From contig CAVNZM010000009.1 in NCBI GenBank assembly GCA_963693365.1, positions 700,963 through 764,962 on the forward strand: a DNA stretch of 64,000 nucleotides, in the 5' to 3' direction. The notes beneath the pieces are model-generated. The model ran no database searches. It worked only from the letters and a program-made list of their open reading frames with translations, and was not told the origin of the DNA. The position numbers and the translations under genes are program-made. How positions within the stretch are numbered: position 1 is the first letter of the stretch; every line of letters begins with the position of its first letter. The stretch comes from Amoebidium appalachense. Lineage: Eukaryota > Protista > Ichthyosporea. Below, one piece after another: positions 4,811 to 63,276 of the stretch.

Positions 4811-5702
4811 ACCACCACCACCACCACCACAAAAACGCACACACTTAAAATGTTTGGAAGGGTGTGTGTATGTGCCGGGAGGAGTGAGGGGAGAGGAGGG
4901 AGAGAGGGGGGGAGAGGGTGGGAAGGGGGGGAGGGGGGAGGGGGGAAGGGTGTTGTGGTACGGTGTATGGGGGGGGGGGGGAGGGGGGAGGGGGGGGGGG
5001 GAGGGGGGATGAGATTGAATGGCTGTATGAACTATCCTAGCACCACCCCATGCCTCACACTGTCAATGTGCAGGCGGGGTGCCAGCAAGCTTGCGCTCTA
5101 CGAGAAAGGTCTGACTGAGTTTTCGGGCTATTCTTATGCTAACTCGAAGATGGCCATGGTACAACTATTCCCCCCCCCCCCCATATATTTTTCTTGCTTC
5201 TGCTTACTGCTGCAACTTTAACCCCCGGCCTTTCCCACTGCCCTTGCCTGCATAAGCAACCCTGCTCGTCTCTGATCAAGACGGGTGACCTACTCATGTT
5301 CAAGTGAAACAGTATCTGAGTTGGGTTTCGTTAACGAGGGGAATAGGTCGAAACTCGGGTACTGTGGATGACGTGGGCCCCCCCTGAGGATGGGCTCTGC
5401 TTATTATGCATACTCTTTATGTATGGCTTGCATTCTGCATCGTGTTATCCGTTTGTTCTTGTGTACTTCGTACTTTTTGACGCATTCAAAACCCCCCTCC
5501 CCCCCCCCCCCCGCCGCCGCCTCACACACACACACACCCACACGCACACACCCACACGCACACACGCGCGCGCACACACACACATGCACACACACAGGCA
5601 GCTGCACCAGGTGCTTGCATGCATGCACTCACTCGCACATAGGTGTACTCCATTTCTCCTTATTCCGCTCCATTCCATATCAATATCCCAACTCCTCCCC
5701 CC

Positions 5703-6541: not shown

Positions 6542-7795
6542 CAATCGGTCCCTCTTCTGCTTTACCGCCATATACTATAGTTGGCCACATACTATAGTTG
6601 GCCACATACTATAGTTGGCCACATACTATAGTTGGCCACATACTATAGTTGGCCACATACTATAGTTGGCCACATACTATAGTTGGTCTCCACACAATGC
6701 ACCTACCTCTCTCTCTCTCCTCCCTGACACTCTCCATGTCACCTTTTCTTCCCGATCCCCCCCCCCCCCCCCCCCCCTCATGCTTCCGCACTCTCCCTCC
6801 CTCCTTACCCCCCTCCCCCTCATCCTTTTCTCCCACACCCCAACCACACCCCCCCCCCCCCCCCCCCCCCCCCCCACACACACACCCACACACATTCTGT
6901 ATCCCATATATCGAATCCCATGGCTAACCCCTCCCCCTCCCCCCTCCCCCCCCCAGGTGCATGCCGTGAATCCCGGTGCCGTCAACAGTGACATCTGGCG
7001 GTCCATCCCCATTGCCTGGATGCTTGCTGTGGCCAAGTTCATTTTCTCTCTCATCTTCCTCACTCCAAGACAGGTATCATCCATCTCCAACCCCCCCCCT
7101 CCCCCCGCCGCCTGCCCCAGGACCCTCCTTGCATTCTCCTCTCTCCCCACTCCACCCTCCCACCCACCTCCCCAAGTTTTTTTCCCAATTGGATGGTTCT
7201 CGGTAACCCCCCCTCCCCTTGCCGTTCACTCGTACTTCCTCCCTCCTCCCCCCTCTTTTTCCCATATGTACAACATCACCTTTCAAATATGTCAACTTTG
7301 AGTCAACTTACACACACTCGCACCAGCTACCAACAATGTCCCCATACTTCACGGATTTGCACTACCTAAGCCACGACTGATATTACCACACCGACTCTCG
7401 GTCTCTCTGCGTCTCTCTTTTCTTCTTCTGGCCCTTCCTTCCTCCCCCCCCCCCCACCCTCCCCCCCCCCCCCCCCCCCATTAGTTTGCACACACATCTT
7501 CACCGTTTTGCTCACCTTGCTTGCATAAGCAACCCTGCTCGTCTTTGATCAAGACGGGTTGACCCACCCAAGTTCAGTTGATGCTGCTGTCTGAGTTGGA
7601 GCGTCGTATATACGCGGGCTAAGGGGTCGAAACTCAGACGCAATTGATGACTTGGGCCCTCCCTGAGGATGGGCTCTGCTTATGACGCATACTGTGCGCA
7701 TGGCTGATGCTGCATACTTGAATGTTTGCCTTTGCATGTGTCCTGCATCATGCTTCTCATCGTCTATGCGTACTTCGTACTGTGTTCCGCATTCA

Positions 7796-7832
<37 letters not shown>

Positions 7833-8107
7833 CGCCCCCCTCCTTCAACTTTTGTTACCCAATCTCACCTGTTCCTTTTTTCAAGAACTCCCATTCTGTT
7901 AAACCCCCCCCCCCCCCCCCCCCCCAACACACACACACACACCTTTAACAAGACTGCAGCATCTATTCTTTCCTCCTTTTCATCCGGCTCTACTCTCCAC
8001 ACCCTGAAGCACTCACATTTTATTCGAACACACATGCACCCGCGCGCACACACACACAGACACACACACACGTGCACATGCACACACACACACACACACG
8101 CACACGC

Positions 8108-8509: not shown

Positions 8510-10045
8510 CACACACAGAATGTTCACATTAGCATGTGTCCTGCATCTTTATCTCCTCGTATAGTTGTTCTTTGTACTGTGTTCTGCATCATACCCCCCC
8601 CCCCCCCCTCCAACACAGGCACAGACCCAGGAATATGTGGGGGGAATGTGTCAGTTCTACGTGAAATTCTTTTGTCGGTGGAGCCTGCTTGGTACTGTCT
8701 CCTACCTACATGTGTCTCCTTTTGCATGCATTGTGTTTTTTTGTTGTGCATTTTGGGGCCTTGGTCTGTTGAGTGCACACATTGTTTCCATCTCGTTGCA
8801 GCAATGTTTTGTTGGTTGGATTTTTGCAAAGGCTCTCTATGGGTGTGTACAAACTTTTGCTCGGTGGCGTGAGCTCGAGCGTAAACTGCACCCCTAAGGG
8901 CCTGTTTGGTAGCGCGCTAAATACGGTTTTTTATCGTATTCGTATTTAGGGCCTAAATACGTATACGATCCCGTGGCATGCCAAACACGCCGCGGGCTTT
9001 TATTTTTTGTAAATACGATAGGGATCGCTTTTATATCGTATTTACGAAAATCACCGCCGGAGGTGTTTTTCGTAAATACGATATAGGAAATTAGCCAATC
9101 AGAGCATTTCGCATCATTTATTGGCTATCAGCTAGCCAATGGTACAGCGTAAGCCGCGGCGGGCACATTTTTACTACAGTACGCATGCCGGTGCATGCAC
9201 GTGAACAATTCACTGTTAGAAAGAAGGTCGGTGTCATACACGTCATTTTGTGTACATGCCCAGTTAAAATTGGCACATGAATTTGGGTAGCGCTGCACAG
9301 GTAAGACAGAGGACGAGGAACCCTACACGGTGCATGATCACAAGCTCAGACTGTATATATATGCCATAATAATCATTGAAACAATACTGGACTCCGATAT
9401 ATGCATTACTAAAAACAATCAAATGTACATGTACAAACTCGGTGACATGCAGGCACCACGAGTTGTAGACAAGGACAAATTTTAACACTATGTGTTCAGA
9501 TATGTGGGGAATGCCAGGGACGAACGTTAGTGACGTAAAACGAGGTCTCTAGCAAGGCTAGCCACCGCAATAACTGGCAGTATCCCTTCAACAACAGACT
9601 TTCTAACCTATTGTTAAACAGAGCAAGACTCACTGTCGGTGACTCGTTTTTGCCGTTCGCTGTAATACTGACTACAGCTGCACCAGCATGGAATACCGAA
9701 GGATGATCAATGGGTGCGAATAGGGCCAATCAGATCTCGTGAACCATGTATCGACATTTTATGTGACCAGTCACGCCTGACAGCGTTTGGAAGACACCAA
9801 CCGTATTTAGGCCCTAAATACGCATACCACGATAAATTTTGTAAATACGGTAGATCGTATTTAGGGCCTAAATACGAATACGATTATTGGGGTGCTGCCA
9901 AACAGGCCCTAAGGTTTAAGCTGGCTTGTCATGGTGTGATCTCAATTTATGTTGGTAACACGTCATTACGCCCACCAAATACATCATCTCTAATCCCCTC
10001 CCCTCCCTGCCCACAGCCGCCCCTTACACCTCCCCCCCCTTCCCC

Positions 10046-15575: not shown

Positions 15576-16196
15576 AGTCCTCATGTGGTGACCTGTGTGA
15601 ATGTATGCCAGCTATATAAAGCAGTTGATGATCTATATTAGGAATGTAGGTGCCTGGCGCACGTGTACATACAGTGTTTTGAGTTTCGACCCCGGCGGAA
15701 TATGCGTCTCTTTATTCTTGAATGTGCGATTGACCTGTAATAATATTATTAATGCATCAAATAAATAGTCTGTAATCGTACAGAAATCGGCAGTATATTT
15801 TTGCATGGGCTGTTTATTCGTGTCACTGTGAATAATCCAAAATCTGCCTAACAGTGCGATGCTTGTATCTCTCTCTTTTTTCCCTTCCTAAATTTAGGGA
15901 ATGATCCATAAATAAATGACACGCACCATGCAACCGAACAATCTCAGATGATAAGTCTATCCTCTCGCCCCCCCCCCCCCCCCCCCCTCCCCCCCGTATC
16001 CCTTTTCCTTTTCATCACCTATGCACGTGCACATCGTAACTACATACGGCTCCCCTGCCTGCTCTTAAATCCTGAATTTTCCCATTTTGATCTCAGAATC
16101 TGCCACATTGGTTGCTTGATTGCTGAAAACCGGAAGGGATACGTTAACGTTGGAGGTAGACTGCAACAGAATACGTTTATGAGGAGGCGCCCTTTG

Positions 16197-31401: not shown

Positions 31402-32799
31402 ATGAATTCCTCTTCTTACGACGCAAAGCCGGACGGCAAAGGCTTTAACGATGCCGCCATCGAGTCAGCCTACGGCGAGACGAGCTCCCTACCCGAACGC
31501 GAGCTCCCCATGTGGAAACTGGTGGTTGCGGCACTTCCCTGGGTGGGGATCCAGTCCATCTGGCAGACAGAGTTTGGCCTTATCACCCCAATAATGGAGG
31601 GCCTAGGTCTGTCTTCTTTCTGGGCAACAAACATTTGGATATTCGGCCCCATTACCGGCTTTATCACAGCCCCCATCGTCGGCGCCTTCTCTGATAGCTG
31701 CCGCTCCCGTTTTGGCCGTCGTCGCCCCTTCCTAGTTGGCGGGTTGTTGACTCTCGTCACCATTTCGATGCTGTTTGCTGGTGCACGCCACATCTTCCCC
31801 TCGGGAGCAGTTCTCCCCATCTCCTTCATCCTTGCTGTGCTTATTGACGTCACCATCAACATTATCCAAACACCCCTCCGCGCACTTGTCTCCGACGTTG
31901 CGCCCAAGTCACAGCAAGCAACAGGGCAGCTTTTGTCTTCGTTTTTCCAGGGGTGCGGTGGTCTGCTGGGCTACGGACTAATGAAAGTGATGTACCACAA
32001 CGAGGACGACCTTCTCAAACTGTTTGGAACTGTTATGGCAATCAACGTGTTCTTCATCCTTCTCACCTGCTTCATCGTTAAAGAAGCCATTAACAACTCC
32101 GCGCAAATGTCATCGCTCAGCGAGCCTTTCGTGACCGTCTTTAAAGCCATCCGTCACATGGACATGCGTCTTGGTGTTGTTGCCGCCGTTCAGTTCTTCT
32201 CGTGGGCGGCATTGTTTGCATGGTGGCCTACTGGTTCCACTTGGTTCGGTATCAACGTGTTTGGTGGATGCAACGGGCCGCAGTGCACACCGGAGGGACA
32301 AGCGCTTTTTAACGATGCTATGGGCCACTATTCCATGTCGGGTGTCTATGCAAACGTACTTCAGATTGTCTACTCAATGGCCCTTGCTTCCCTCGTCACC
32401 TTTGGTATTCTTCAGCGCACACGCTTCATCTACGCCGGGTCTCTTGCCGTGGGAGCAGTGATCATGCTTCTGTCCAAGTTTGGCCCACAGACTCTAGGCA
32501 TGGCCTATGCAGTTGCTATTCTTATCAGTGTTCCCATCTCTGCAATTAATGCATTCCCCTTTGCTATTGTGGGTAAATACAGTCAGGAGGACGAGGGTAA
32601 CCTGGCCGTGGGCGTGCAGATGGGAATTCTTAATTTGTTTATCTGCACACCGCAGCTTATTGTGACGTTTATCATTGCAGGAATGCGCGAGGGTTTGGGC
32701 CAGGAGGGTCTGCCGTGGGCTCTGGTTATGGCGGGTGGTTGTTTTGCCGTGGCTGGTGCGATTGCATTGATGATTAGAGAGGTGGTGGCTAAAAATTAA
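31402..32799 (+). CDS. MFS/GPH sucrose:H+ symporter-like transporter (SUC/SUT-SLC45 family), intronless
   Basis: 465 aa with ~12 hydrophobic segments. Motifs WIFGPITGFITAPIVGAFSDSCRSRFGRRRPF, QTPLRALVSD and GILNLFICTPQL. TATAAA at ~31324. Confidence 0.93.
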   Translation: MNSSSYDAKPDGKGFNDAAIESAYGETSSLPERELPMWKLVVAALPWVGIQSIWQTEFGLITPIMEGLGLSSFWATNIWIFGPITGFITAPIVGAFSDSCRSRFGRRRPFLVGGLLTLVTISMLFAGARHIFPSGAVLPISFILAVLIDVTINIIQTPLRALVSDVAPKSQQATGQLLSSFFQGCGGLLGYGLMKVMYHNEDDLLKLFGTVMAINVFFILLTCFIVKEAINNSAQMSSLSEPFVTVFKAIRHMDMRLGVVAAVQFFSWAALFAWWPTGSTWFGINVFGGCNGPQCTPEGQALFNDAMGHYSMSGVYANVLQIVYSMALASLVTFGILQRTRFIYAGSLAVGAVIMLLSKFGPQTLGMAYAVAILISVPISAINAFPFAIVGKYSQEDEGNLAVGVQMGILNLFICTPQLIVTFIIAGMREGLGQEGLPWALVMAGGCFAVAGAIALMIREVVAKN

Positions 32800-36967: not shown

Positions 36968-37241
36968 GCTGCACTGTAAGCCTACGAGTTAGATTAACTG
37001 CCCCGGAAGCAGAACGTTATGTTGCTGCAATAACACCTTAATGGTATGTAATTCTCCTATTGACTTCTTAGTAGAAAATACGTGGTACATCGTAATAATG
37101 TGTTACAGCATACAATTTGATATTGTGCTCAAATATAATGAAAAAGTTATAGACGTAGTGTTCTATGTATCCTGTTAATTCCAGTCAAAATAAAAGGATT
37201 CTATTGGGTCCAAACCCACTTGTTGTCTGTAATGTGCACTA

Positions 37242-37390
37242 GATGCCGGGGCCCTCTGCGAGGATGGGCTCTGCTTATGACGCATACTGTGCGCATTGCT
37301 GATGTTGCATACTTCAATGTTTGCATTTGCATGTGTCCGCACCATGCTTCTCGTCGTGTATGCGTACTTCGCGCCGTCTTCCGCATTCAA
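37242..37390 (+). mobile_element. 5'-truncated copy D of the structured repeat family
   Basis: GGGCCCTCTGCGAGGATGGGCTCTGCTTATGACGCATACTGTGCGCA...CCGCATTCAA followed by a C-tract matches the 3' half of copy B. Confidence 0.8.
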
Positions 37391-49050: not shown

Positions 49051-51362
49051 GAAGGAATATCCCGATGCTCTCTTGTTACCAAACACCACTCCCGCTAGAC
49101 TAGGTGAACCCCTGTCTCAAAAGGAAAGCTTGCGCCGGCTTGCTAGTATGAATCGATTTGGCCCCCCTGCTCGTATTATTGGTGATACCACTGGAGACCC
49201 CCTCATAGACTCTGATAAGTATTTCTCGGAACTGTTTAAAGATAGGACCCCCGCTCAGAAACCTATTGTGTGGCCTGTAGACCCATCTATCCCCATAGAA
49301 TCGATCCTCCCCTTTTTCAGTCCCGATGCCATATGGTCTGTGATATCTAGTTATAGCTCTAGTAAGTCTTGTGGACCTGATGGACTCCCTGCTGGGTTTC
49401 TTAAAATCCTTGTTCCCTCCTACCCACAAAAGGAAAGTGATCGTGCTATTAAACCTGATCTTACTATCATGTTAAGCTCTCTCTTTTCTTGGTGTGTTAA
49501 ATGTGGACATGTCCCGTCATCTTGGTTAGATACCTTAGTGATCCCCATAGTTAAGAAGGACTCTGAGGGCCCCATATCATCCTTTCGCCCCATTACACTA
49601 ACCCAGGTTGTTCGTAGATTCTTTGAAGCTTGCTTACTTAGGTTATTTGCACATCACCCTAGGTTTCAATCTATTCTTCACATACACCCATGCCAATCCG
49701 CTTTTCGTAAAAACAATTCATGTTATGTTCAAATAATGGCACTGCACGATTCTATGCAAGTTGGTGCACAATATGTTGGCTTTATTGATTGGAAAACTGC
49801 TTACGATTCTGTCTCCCCTGGTCTCCTATGGGAAAAGCTTGCTGCACGGGGTGTACCACACTGCATTGGTGTTCTGTTAGAAGCACTCTTGTCTCAAACC
49901 TATGGTAGAGCTGTGGTTAATGGGCATCTTTCATATGGTTTTGCTCGTACTAGAGGTCTCTTGCAGGGTTCATTGCTTAGCCCCTTTTTGTTTAACCTAT
50001 TTATAGATGATTTGGCTGTCAAGATTTACGCCGAAAACGATGACCCTATTAATAACTTTCCGCCTGCACTTCTCTATGCTGATGATCTGTCCCTCCTTGC
50101 CCGTACCCCTAGACGCCTGCAAAGATTGTTCGATGTAGTGTCAGAGTGGTGCAAGGCAAACCTTATGATCCTTAACATAGACAAATGTGGTGTTCTTGTA
50201 CCTGATATAGCTAACAATTTACACACATTTACATTATCATCTAAACCTGTACCTATAGTTCCAGAATACAAATATCTTGGTGTTCCGGTTGATTCTGTTG
50301 GTGTTATGTTTCCCCATATGGTCGAAAAGAGGGTAGAGTTGGCTCGTAAGCGGTTAGCTTTCTTCTCGGCTAATATTTTTAAAGACACACCCCTCCATCC
50401 TTCTATTAGACTTACATTTATTCGCACTTTTGTCTTCCCGGCATGTGAATATGGTTTACCCCTTCTCGCCGCTTGGATCAAGAAAGAGAGAACTAGAGCG
50501 CTTAAACCCTTGGCAAATTTCCTTGAAGCAGAAGTTGCCTCCTTTCTATCTAACAACTGTTGTAAACCTGGGCCTGTAACGCTCTCGATATATGGTCTGG
50601 TCCCAATAGCTGCTAGAGTATCCTATCTCGCGCTGAAATTCAATAAGCACATAAGCCGCTTAAAGAAGTATTTGCCCTCCCACCCTCTCTTCTCTATCCG
50701 ACCTGTCCCCTCCTCACCTCTCCCCTCTTTCCTCCCCTCTCTCTCCCCTTCTCCCCTGGGCACAAATACAAATAAACCCCGCAATAGTGTGTGTGTGACT
50801 TTGGACTGCCACTTACTTATTAAACATGTACACAATCACAAGATAATCACGCAATATAACAAATGGAAAAAGATACCACACGACACTAGACCCGATGAAA
50901 GCATACACCTTGAAAAACTAAGCCTTATGTCTCGTTTTATATATACTGACCGCCTCAACCATATTGCCAAATATGGCACTCGCAAGTGTATAACACCTAA
51001 ATACATATTACCTTCCTGTAGAACTGGTCTTTCTCTAGCTGATGGTATTATTGATCAATTACCACGCTTTTACTGTACACGTGCTATACAGTGGAGATCT
51101 AATAAGTATAAGGTGGCATCATTTGCATGCCCAAACAACACACACACACACCAGTTTAACCGGTCATGTATCGCCAAATGTAGTTTGATAGACCACATAA
51201 TACCGCAACACACACACGTCACATTCACAACAGACACCCAGAAAGATAGCCTACCTGTAAATTACAACATCCTTGATTTTATACTAAACACGCGTAACTA
51301 CGACCTGTTTATTAGATGTATTGATTGGCTTGAGAAACACATCACTACAAAATTATAGCGCA

Positions 51363-51431
<69 letters not shown>

Positions 51432-51463
51432 CCAGCTGATACCGAGTGTCCCGAGGGGAGCCC

Positions 51464-51510
<47 letters not shown>

Positions 51511-52310: not shown

Positions 52311-52489
52311 ACTATTACTCTGATAAATCACGTGATTGGTGGGCGGTTTTGGGATAGTGGAATAGCACATGCATTTTAAATATAACGCAAGGGTGTATAG
52401 AGATCGCGTCCGCGAATAAGAACCCCCCAAAATGTGGCAGGGTGGCGGAATCTTAAATTTTTGGAGGGTCGGGGTCAGCATCTTATTGG

Positions 52490-52538
<49 letters not shown>

Positions 52539-52540
<2 letters not shown>

Positions 52541-52900
52541 GAATGCGGAACACGGTACGAAGTACGCATACACGATGAGAAGCATGGTGCAGGACACATG
52601 CAAAGGCAAACATTCAAGTATGCAACATCATCCATGCGCACAGTATGCGTCATAAGCAGAGCCCATCCTCAGGGAGGGCCCAAGTCATCAATTGCGTCTG
52701 AGTTTCGACCCCTTAGCCCGCGTATATACGACTCTCCAACTCAGACAGCAGCATCAACTGAACTTGGGAGAGTCAACCCGTCTTGATCAAAGACGAGCAG
52801 GGTTGCTTATGCAAACAAGGTGAGCAAAACGGTGAAGATGTGTGTGCAAACTAATGCAGTGCAGCGAAAAATGTGTATGTGCTTACATATGCACGACACA
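52539..52900 (-). mobile_element. structured dispersed repeat (SINE-like), longest copy E, nested in the DNA transposon
   Basis: Reverse complement of copy B plus ~45 extra 5' bases. Bounded by G runs at 52491-52538 and 52901-52960. Confidence 0.8.
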
Positions 52901-52961
<61 letters not shown>

Positions 52962-53090
52962 GGGGGGTGGAGGGCAACACCACAGTACAGTACATATGTA
53001 CCCAGGAATGAGCAGTCGGTAAATGCATATATGGCACTGACACCATGTCATGCGTATGCATATGTATTAACACTTTGAGTTGGGACGTAC

Positions 53091-53781
53091 GGTTTTTGGC
53101 CCTTCCATCCAACACAACCCCCTCACGCAGAGCCTGCTCGTCTCGTGCTATCTGAGCCGCTATGATTTCCTGCCGTGTGCGCTCACGGTCAGTCTCTGCA
53201 GCTGACACTGGTGTGTGGACTATAGACACCTTCCCAAGGCCATCTGTAGTTACCTTTGCCACGGACTTCGTGTACAGAACGCAATGTAGCTCGTGGGAAG
53301 TCCGCCCCCCGTTGTTACCAAAAGTGCGCGGGCAACCAGCACCACGGCAAGGAAGGCGTAGCCTGTCCTGCGCTGGTTTGACCATGGCTTCTCCGATGAT
53401 TGCCGCCTCGTCGTCTGACACAGTGAATTCCAGAAACCCCTTCTCCGTTGTGATGGTCCCTGTTGTTTTCACCGACACGGTTATTTTCTTTCTGAAGCCC
53501 ACGTTGTTGAACTCGAGCATGGACCTTTGCCCCGGTAAAGGTTTGGGCAGCTTACCAGAGTGATCTTCGCTCATGTCTGAGGTGTCCTGGCTGATTATTG
53601 CTGTTGCCTCTACACTTGCTTGTGCAACTTCGCTGGTTATCTCCACGAACCTACTTTGGACCTTAGCTGCCTCACCAAAATTTTTTTGTGACAAGTTGGC
53701 AAGCTCGGTAGTCCGCATGGCTACCTTGTGTTTCAGCCTGACAAGGGCCCTAGTGGCCGCTGAGCCCCCACGTTTAACCAT
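53091..53781 (-). pseudogene. first exon of the transposon-encoded protein (probable transposase N-terminus with a Zn-finger-like motif); downstream exons missing
   Basis: ~230 non-repetitive codons inside the TIRs, including CRGAGCPRTF...SHELHC. The exon ends at ..VLDGRAKN(R) with a GTACGT donor at 53090. No DDE domain remains. Confidence 0.55.
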
Positions 53782-54406
53782 CTTAGTGGCTACTTTTGGC
53801 CCTCTGGCCGCCTACGTAATAATTTGTTAGTTATCAAGGCACCCTTGCAACATCATCCCCCTCTAGCTGGTAAAGATCGAACTACGGCAGGTACAGAACC
53901 TTGTGGAAAAGAGTGGACGGAGTGAAAACTTTGTGTACACATATGGACAGTTTCCCGCCATTTTTGTCGGGCATGATCATGCATGATCCAGCATGATTTA
54001 TTCATCCGTCCGCCAATAAGATCACCACGAAAACTGGCCGGGGGGCAGAATCTTAAAAAAAAAAAGATTTTGCCGGGGGCGAAATCTTATAGGCGGGGGT
54101 TCTCATTCGCGGACGCTATCTGTATTATTGTCCGATGGACGATAACAGGTTTTCATCCGGGTAAGGTTTGGAGTTCTTCAATCTGATTTTCCTCTACTCT
54201 CTAGCGGTTCCTGGTATGGTACTTTTTACGTTCTTTATTTTTAATTGTGTTCGAAGACAGCAATAACGTTTGTATAGCTCTGAATACGTGTGCTATGTGT
54301 GTGTGTGTCTGCTCATGACTTTACAGTGTGTGTTCACGGTTCAGGGTGTGGAGTGGTGGTGGTATTGTTTTTTTTCTGTTATTGGGGGGGGGGGGGGGGG
54401 GGGGAG

Positions 54407-63030: not shown

Positions 63031-63276
63031 CCGTATCTACCATTTTAGACAAAATCAAGGATGATCCGATCGAGGATTTCGGATGGCCCTGTTGCGGCTC
63101 TTGAAATCTCGAATCAATCAAGCGATCGAGGGCATGACGTCCTTCTGACGTTTTTGTAAACAAATGACGTCACATCCTCGATTACTTATATGTTCGAGAA
63201 TTTCAATAACCGCGCAGGGCCATCAGAAATCCTCGATCGGATCATCCTCGATCGGGGTTTAAAATGGTAGATACGG
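63031..63276. mobile_element. foldback MITE (~246 bp, ~100-bp imperfect inverted arms)
   Basis: Perfect 17-bp termini CCGTATCTACCATTTTA / TAAAATGGTAGATACGG. Internal arms AGGATGATCCGATCGAGGATTTC.GATGGCCCTG pair with their reverse complement. The TSD is ambiguous (CCT near both flanks). Confidence 0.82.

Follow-up and report, generated by a model that had tools for sequence, protein, structure and literature searches.

The locus and its repeats

The stretch of DNA analysed here (the window, 64,000 nucleotides of contig CAVNZM010000009.1 of Amoebidium appalachense) is eukaryotic and rich in microsatellites, and carries five copies of a repeat. Three of these (A, B and C) lie on the plus strand in introns of a gene which, judging from motifs in its exon translations, is presumably short-chain-dehydrogenase-like. 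The copies, in window coordinates, are as follows.

5182–5492, plus strand: copy A, representing a second subfamily; core at 5251–5405, predicted cut 3' of 5322
7480–7797, plus strand: copy B, about 320 nt, with a poly-C tract on each side, in an intron of the short-chain-dehydrogenase-like gene
8517–8594, plus strand: copy C, consisting only of the 3' tail, flanked by (CA)n and (C)n
about 37201–37390, plus strand: copy D, 5'-truncated, with C3, U4 and G12 altered and the cleavage-site block absent
52539–52900, minus strand: copy E, 97% identical to B, inside a poly-C tract; core at 52651–52811, predicted cut 3' of 52738

An initial annotation of the window had proposed that the core of copy B, from 7524 to 7684, folds into a selected four-way-junction RNA, and had favoured the plus-strand RNA because of G-U-tolerant changes, describing this strand as the sense strand of the host introns. 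The latter holds for A, B and C, whereas E is on the minus strand. The sequence data do support a selected and structured RNA on the strand of the element itself. Identity between copies A and B reaches 80% in the core, whereas it is 48% in the leader and 56% in the tail, as compared to 46–47% with shuffled sequences, from which it follows that selection acts on the core. The coverage of copy A in sequencing run X14, which bears the label of another organism, is nil upstream of 5237 and below 12 downstream of 5423, which fits conservation of the core only, but absent coverage proves nothing.

All five copies end at the 3' side in (C)n, the 5' start lies in (C)n in three of them (A, B and E) and in (CA)n in one (C), and copies C and D are truncated at the 5' end. 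In several contigs the 3' end of the element is followed by poly-C and then again by a truncated copy, giving partial head-to-tail tandems. Copy B is covered by 7,964 and 12,271 contigs in two whole-genome runs and copy A by 8,161 and 9,066; since summed contig depth is not the same as copy number, we term the repeat just very high copy. Element contigs also occur in two runs guessed to be RNA, where their presence indicates neither expression nor cleavage.

The 5' truncation, partial tandems and poly-C flanks are directly visible in the sequence. The same combination of 5' truncation, partial head-to-tail tandems and a bias towards insertion in (C)n or (CA)n was described for Naiad and Chlamys Penelope-like elements and their non-autonomous derivatives, such as MRC1 (Craig et al. 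2021, PMC8557442). On the basis of these traits, and not of shared sequence, the repeat is likely a non-autonomous Penelope-like element. An autonomous partner was not found, and a GIY-YIG domain was absent from the 120 of 176 window ORFs that were scanned. The LINE-like reverse transcriptase at 49073–51358 was rejected as a partner on account of its poly-A end and its lack of similarity to the repeat in a self-comparison. It belongs to an ORF of 761 amino acids (49073–51510, plus strand; RVT_1, E 3e-28), directly 3' of an ArfGAP-like ORF and followed by (CA)n and poly-A; an endonuclease domain was not detected in it, and its 3' end is unlike that of the poly-C repeat.

A separate observation concerns chromosome ends, with which some Penelope elements are known to be associated. 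One contig of run X2 carries telomere-like G-rich repeats between two positions of copy A (window 5351–5361), a possible link of the repeat to chromosome ends that comes from this single contig.

A hammerhead core in the repeat

The hammerhead is a textbook ribozyme. Its 13 core positions are C3, U4, G5, A6, N7, G8 and A9, followed by G12, A13, A14 and A15, and by U16 and H17 (consensus in PMC3088659). Each of copies A, B and E contains all 13 of these nucleotides, together with the G10.1-C11.1 pair and a GUU cleavage site. The parts of this core and of the surrounding fold are given here for copy B; all are on the plus strand.

7524–7535, plus strand: 5' arm of the closing helix (7524–7531) and of its 3-bp extension (7533–7535)
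7537–7559, plus strand: hairpin of the domain inserted between A9 and G10.1, with a predicted stacking on the extension of the closing helix
7560–7566, plus strand: extra U7560, then the 5' strand of stem II starting with G10.1 (7561)
7567–7573, plus strand: 5' strand of the 'I' helix, which pairs with 7650–7656 and joins stems I and II at their distal ends
7589–7597, plus strand: 5' strand of stem III, U16.1 (7596) and H17 (U7597), with the predicted cut 3' of 7597
7598–7601, plus strand: strand of stem I 3' of the predicted cut, pairing with 7659–7662
7605–7614, plus strand: variable apical hairpin in the linker between stems I and II, with different letters in A and in run X14
7624–7639, plus strand: 3' strand of stem II up to C11.1 (7628), G12-A13-A14-A15.1 (7629–7632) and 3' strand of stem III
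7650–7670, plus strand: 3' strand of the 'I' helix (7650–7656), stem I partner (7659–7662), core C3 to A9 (7663–7669) and extra U7670
7671–7684, plus strand: 3' arms of the helix extension (7671–7673) and of the closing helix (7677–7684)

The blocks thus occur in the order cleavage site (7596), GAAA (7629) and CUGAnGA (7663, reading CUGAGGA in copy B), with GAAA 3' of the site and 5' of CUGAnGA. This is not the circular order of hammerhead types I to III but the non-circular order of type SGC. Stems I, II and III close the core in A, B and E without mispairs adjoining it, and the 'I' helix forms all seven pairs in these copies if the 5' strand of stem II is taken upstream.

Two of the helices are pseudoknots that the initial annotation did not include, namely stem II (7561–7565 with 7624–7628) and stem I (7598–7601 with 7659–7662). 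In the nested minimum-energy fold 7560–7566 is single-stranded, and its partner 7624–7628 lies in the apical loop of the long rod that the annotation had described. That rod, which is indeed present and in copy A has 14 bp including three G-U pairs, corresponds to stem III, and together with the stem II helix it converges on C-G-A-A-A, facing U7596 and U7597. Stem I is short, with 4 bp in B and E and 3 bp in A, and contributes about −4.3 kcal/mol.

The position of stem II determines how the core is to be drawn. A junction of 0–2 nt between A9 and stem II exists only with a weak contiguous stem II, whereas the better stem II uses the upstream strand: −8.5 versus −5.1 kcal/mol in B, and −6.7 versus −2.2 kcal/mol in A. 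With this better strand (7561–7565) located 5' of the core, the latter would be interrupted between A9 and G10.1, where the closing helix and the first hairpin would clamp it.

The two clamping helices had both been noted earlier. The closing helix (7524–7531/7677–7684) pairs at 8 of 8 positions in B and 7 of 8 in A. The hairpin 7538–7545/7551–7558 exists as well, but it shows no two-sided change and lacks its innermost pair in A, and a second pair is disrupted by the 7556 variant, present at 16% in run X1; its pair probability is 0.84–1.00 in B and at most 0.39 in A. For the closing-helix extension the probability is 0.32 in B and 0.19 in A, and for the 'I' helix of A about 0.1, both in a nested ensemble, which cannot count pseudoknots.

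Different conclusions have to be drawn for the last hairpin of the annotation and for the fold as a whole. The hairpin was presented as a covarying element of which copy D keeps the pairing with a GNRA loop. However, the change in A at 7660 breaks one pair, and the changes in D fall on the catalytic letters C3 and U4, in a core that also has C for G12 and is dead, so that covariation of this hairpin is unsupported. It is paired with a probability of about 0.5 in B and at most 0.22 in A, and is probably a competing fold. The nested four-way junction is an incomplete description, and one of its hairpins is in competition with the predicted active fold.

Just 5' of stem II a conserved G-N-K-A-A is found at 7618–7623 and 5339–5344. 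Its second place is C, G or T depending on the subfamily, and it may make a tertiary contact.

Conservation, covariation and controls

Copies A and B differ at 36 of 161 columns but at none of the 13 core letters (p 0.03, calculated post hoc). When A, B and E are aligned, 119 of 120 cells are paired and 3 of 40 pairs show a two-sided change, a result matched by 21 of 500 shuffles; this covariation among three copies is weak, since two of them, B and E, hardly differ. Stem I has a further change at its third pair, A-U in B versus G-C in A, which was omitted from the 3 of 40 because of gap placement and is counted separately. The other two-sided changes between B and A are C-G versus U-A in stem II, A-U versus U-G in the 'I' helix and G-C versus A-U in stem III, so that such changes occur in all four of these helices, and five helices can be paired in A, B and E.

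Further variation was found in sequencing runs, the variant tables of which were derived from assembled contigs and are unphased. In run X14 the closing helix has a two-sided change, with C>T at 5257 in 95% and the matching change at a loose end covered by 3 contigs. The stem II variants T>C at 5291 and A>G at 5345 reach 2.7 and 4.1%, 3.2 and 2.7%, 99 and 100%, and 12.7 and 6.3% in four runs; this tracking may reflect linkage within subfamilies, since the positions 5294 and 5340, which cannot pair, track equally well in two runs. A9 is altered in 12% of the depth of run X14 (3 contigs).

With regard to folding energy, copy B is more stable than its shuffled versions (z −3.11, 1/200), whereas A differs weakly (z −1.51, 15/200). 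The minus strands fold likewise (z −3.58 and −1.48), and folding energy thus does not indicate a strand. The apical palindromes that had been listed for A and B are both present, and GGTCGAAAC is common to A, B and E as was stated; this word occurs in exact form a fourth time, at 15683 beyond the repeat copies, and if up to one mismatch is allowed it is found 11 times, as compared to 12.97 expected by chance.

Chance occurrence of the layout was evaluated with descriptors that were composed after the sequence had been seen. The relaxed descriptor matched 7, 5 and 1 per 20,000 dinucleotide shuffles of B, A and the core of B, respectively, and the strict one none of 20,000. A descriptor scan of the window gave matches in 6 of 399 tiles, each of them on A, B or E. 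As a control, 120 viral loci were selected for the presence of both motifs, from 25 of the 64 parts of a viral contig collection; three of them had stems I and III and two of these the upstream stem II too, but none had the full layout, and no relative was present among them.

Searches with a first sequence pattern in metagenomes gave no loci, and a second pattern gave 18 metagenome loci, one viral locus and 24 genome loci, none of which (0/43) was homologous (best E 1.8). Rfam yielded no match in the whole window at gathering scores and none in 7300–7950 at E up to 10; a strong match to a known class, which according to the initial annotation would have removed the novelty, was thus not obtained. 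Nested covariance models (Infernal) cannot represent such a strand order, and the absence of an Rfam match is therefore to be expected.

Comparison with known hammerheads

The closest known forms are the non-circularly permuted hammerheads of type SGC, HRIMA-1 and its variants (Eckert et al. 2023, PMC10085705). Like these, the repeat has the order site, GAAA, CUGAnGA with all core letters, and a fourth 'I' helix that links stems I and II and is attached to stem III at its distal end. In type SGC this helix pairs a strand 3' of stem II with a strand 5' of stem I, which corresponds here to 7567–7573 with 7650–7656. The repeat differs in that the 5' strand of stem II and the I-helix strand are located upstream and the SGC ends are joined. 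This splits the C block, which the permutation scheme of PMC10085705 presumes to be uninterruptible. Furthermore, the linker between stems I and II is about 18–22 nt long and carries a hairpin, as compared to about 3 nt in type SGC, and the repeat is a eukaryotic genomic one, whereas according to the available parts of PMC10085705 SGC forms were found in no known organism's genome. The order and the I helix thus agree with type SGC, but in the favoured fold the C block is interrupted, and for that reason we do not file the repeat as HRIMA-1, even though its predicted working is SGC-like.

Hammerheads are also present in Penelope-like elements and in non-LTR retrozymes (PMC4209133; bioRxiv 10.64898/2026.07.22.740005). 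The repeat shares with these an extra nucleotide between 9 and 10.1, which is typical of Penelope hammerheads, the G10.1-C11.1 pair, a longer stem II, a short stem I and a position in partial tandem repeats (PMC4209133). Those hammerheads have the circular order of type I and are often minimal and dimeric, in contrast to the long stem III, non-circular order and two-helix insert found here.

For Naiad and Chlamys elements a canonical hammerhead was not reported in the available parts of PMC8557442, just 'core' or 'half-core' matches. By eye, however, the consensus 3' ends of the octopus elements Naiad_Obim and Naiad_Ovul given there show the same split layout with an inserted domain. They begin with a 4-bp helix arm, 2 nt, a hairpin, a U, a 6-bp stem II strand starting with G10.1 and an I strand, continue with stem III, the site, a 5-bp stem I, 2 nt, stem II, GAAA and stem III, and conclude with an I strand, stem I, the core, a U and a helix arm. 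As the two ends are near-identical, they count as one case. Among the eight half-core Naiads, Ovul fits, Esco fits in part with a doubtful stem II, and Nbra-3, Hpol and Smim have the canonical order, whereas Dst-3 lacks such a motif in the stretch that was viewed; Parc and Dst-4 are excluded from this tally. Several Naiad 3' ends in the supplement of PMC8557442 contain, by eye, a different conserved motif that likely pairs and is not obviously a hammerhead.

Proposed mechanism and alternatives

On the basis of the sequence, we consider it probable that the core of the repeat, which has all hammerhead letters in the SGC order, folds as a self-cleaving ribozyme candidate that is split between A9 and G10.1 and cuts the RNA of a likely non-autonomous Penelope-like element after U7597. 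The initial annotation had left a choice between an RT-recognition structure, an unknown ribozyme and an intron-encoded ncRNA. We favour a ribozyme, the core being that of the hammerhead and not of an unknown class, and discard a host ncRNA encoded by the introns, since the sequence belongs to a high-copy dispersed repeat.

In the predicted active fold, the closing-helix extension would stack on the first hairpin and thereby bring A9-U7670 next to U7560-G10.1. Stem II would thus be assembled from the upstream strand, and the ribozyme from four strands instead of the usual three. Topologically, the fold may be seen as what results if an SGC ribozyme is circularised and then opened between A9 and G10.1; each new end carries one U and continues into the closing-helix extension and the first hairpin. 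Cleavage after U7597 could turn read-through or tandem transcripts into RNA of unit length, which might be circular. An autonomous element of the Naiad/Chlamys type may then supply the reverse transcriptase and the endonuclease that copy this RNA into (C)n tracts. The last hairpin, by masking the core, might hold the ribozyme inactive and so restrict the cutting of host pre-mRNA.

Several observations argue against an active split fold. Stem I is short, and the nested scaffold of the initial annotation is 2.7–4.1 kcal/mol more stable than the split fold before pseudoknots are added; the extension and the I helix of A are minor, A9 varies, and the core of copy D is dead.

A related possibility, which seems unlikely, is that the repeat contains a contiguous type-SGC hammerhead, in which stem II is formed just 3' of the core, with 2 bp if one extra U intervenes or 4–6 bp if two extra letters do, and the upstream helix is an inhibitory alternative. 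The contiguous stem II can be drawn with 6 bp in B and E and 4 bp in A; some natural hammerheads have a stem II of two pairs (PMC3088659), and inserts of 1–2 nt between A9 and stem II are known (PMC10085705). Nevertheless, this helix is weaker by 3.4–4.5 kcal/mol, the change in A at 7624 disrupts it and spares the upstream helix, the loose end after 5394 in run X14 allows only 2 bp of it (3 contigs), and the contiguous fold yields no I helix of the SGC type.

The fold could also be derived from a hammerhead but be non-cutting, or cut only with the aid of a protein, and be maintained as a recognition handle for the reverse transcriptase on the element RNA. The stable competing hairpin, short stem I and GUU site are in agreement with this, as is the fact that the sense-oriented intronic copies A and B are tolerated; moreover, some Penelope hammerheads are poor cleavers in vitro, and Naiads spread without canonical hammerheads (PMC8557442). 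Against it stands the retention of every catalytic letter in subfamilies that have diverged as far as A and B, and we regard such a handle as rather improbable.

That the hammerhead-like words arose by chance in neutral repeat palindromes, a tRNA-derived SINE or another non-catalytic RNA is very unlikely. The weak folding z of copy A, the similar folding of both strands and the empty Rfam result would suit such an origin, but the controls with shuffles and viral loci and the confinement of conservation to the core do not. A tRNA gene was not detected, nor a tRNA-like head or a pair of A and B boxes in the proper order, as a tRNA-derived SINE should have.

HDV ribozymes fold as a nested double pseudoknot, in which the catalytic C is invariant. 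A ribozyme of this kind, with 7561–7565:7624–7628 as P2 and G-C-U-A-A at 7618–7622 as catalytic strand, is highly improbable: C does occupy the catalytic place in B and in 73% of the depth of run X14, and a relaxed descriptor matches A, B and E (a stricter one gives 12 matches in A and 2 in B), but the descriptor also matches 151 and 330 of 500 shuffles, its anchors in A are not homologous to those in B, copies of the A type carry G or T where the catalytic C should be, the partner strand of the would-be P1 is downstream, and such a double pseudoknot with its invariant C was not found.

Other candidates were rejected as well. These were a coding exon (by eye, each of the three frames of B contains stops), a core in the upstream CTGATCA loop (C at G8), and a core in TGATGA at 7645–7650 (no fitting stem II and GAAA).

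Novelty and implications

The candidate that we prefer, a type-SGC-like hammerhead with a split catalytic strand, would extend the range of known hammerheads. No published description of a split form was found, although subscription papers and the supplements of PMC10085705, which were outside the search, may bear on this. A split core is not described in the available parts of PMC10162972, PMC13725137 and bioRxiv 10.64898/2026.09.16.752053; PMC13725137 cites its reference 13 for hammerheads with additional helices.

If the proposal is correct, a split form that occurs naturally and in high copy would extend the published hammerhead permutation scheme and place non-circular hammerhead permutations in eukaryotic chromosomes. 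It would also imply that nested covariance models and standard descriptors overlook a class of retroelement ribozymes. The remark that Naiad and Chlamys elements lack a canonical hammerhead becomes directly testable, and the insert between A9 and G10.1 is a possible place for switchable designs.

More tentatively, and with somewhat less than even confidence, we suggest an active hammerhead permutation additional to the six that are considered possible, in which a domain of two helices closes the gap between A9 and G10.1 in the catalytic strand. It could then be an old and recurring feature of elements of the Naiad/Chlamys type, from microbial eukaryotes to octopus, which would partly explain the reported lack of hammerheads, with a hairpin serving as off-switch in host introns.

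Other features of the window

Copy E lies in a poly-C tract inside a 1.7-kb element with terminal inverted repeats (about 52400–54115), which has a minus-strand ORF with a C2H2-like motif for which a homologue search gave no result. No exact match in the protein collection was obtained for three proteins of the window. An intron of the dehydrogenase-like gene harbours a MITE-like sequence at 8893–9914 with terminal inverted repeats and internal palindromes, and a 17-nt unit, also intronic, is repeated in tandem about 6.5 times at 6573–6687. At 63031–63276 there is an imperfect palindrome of 246 nt with 77% self-complementarity. Finally, an intronless ORF resembling MFS sugar transporters is located at 31402–32799 on the plus strand, and its named matches are mostly from chytrids and blastoclads, with 42–50% identity.
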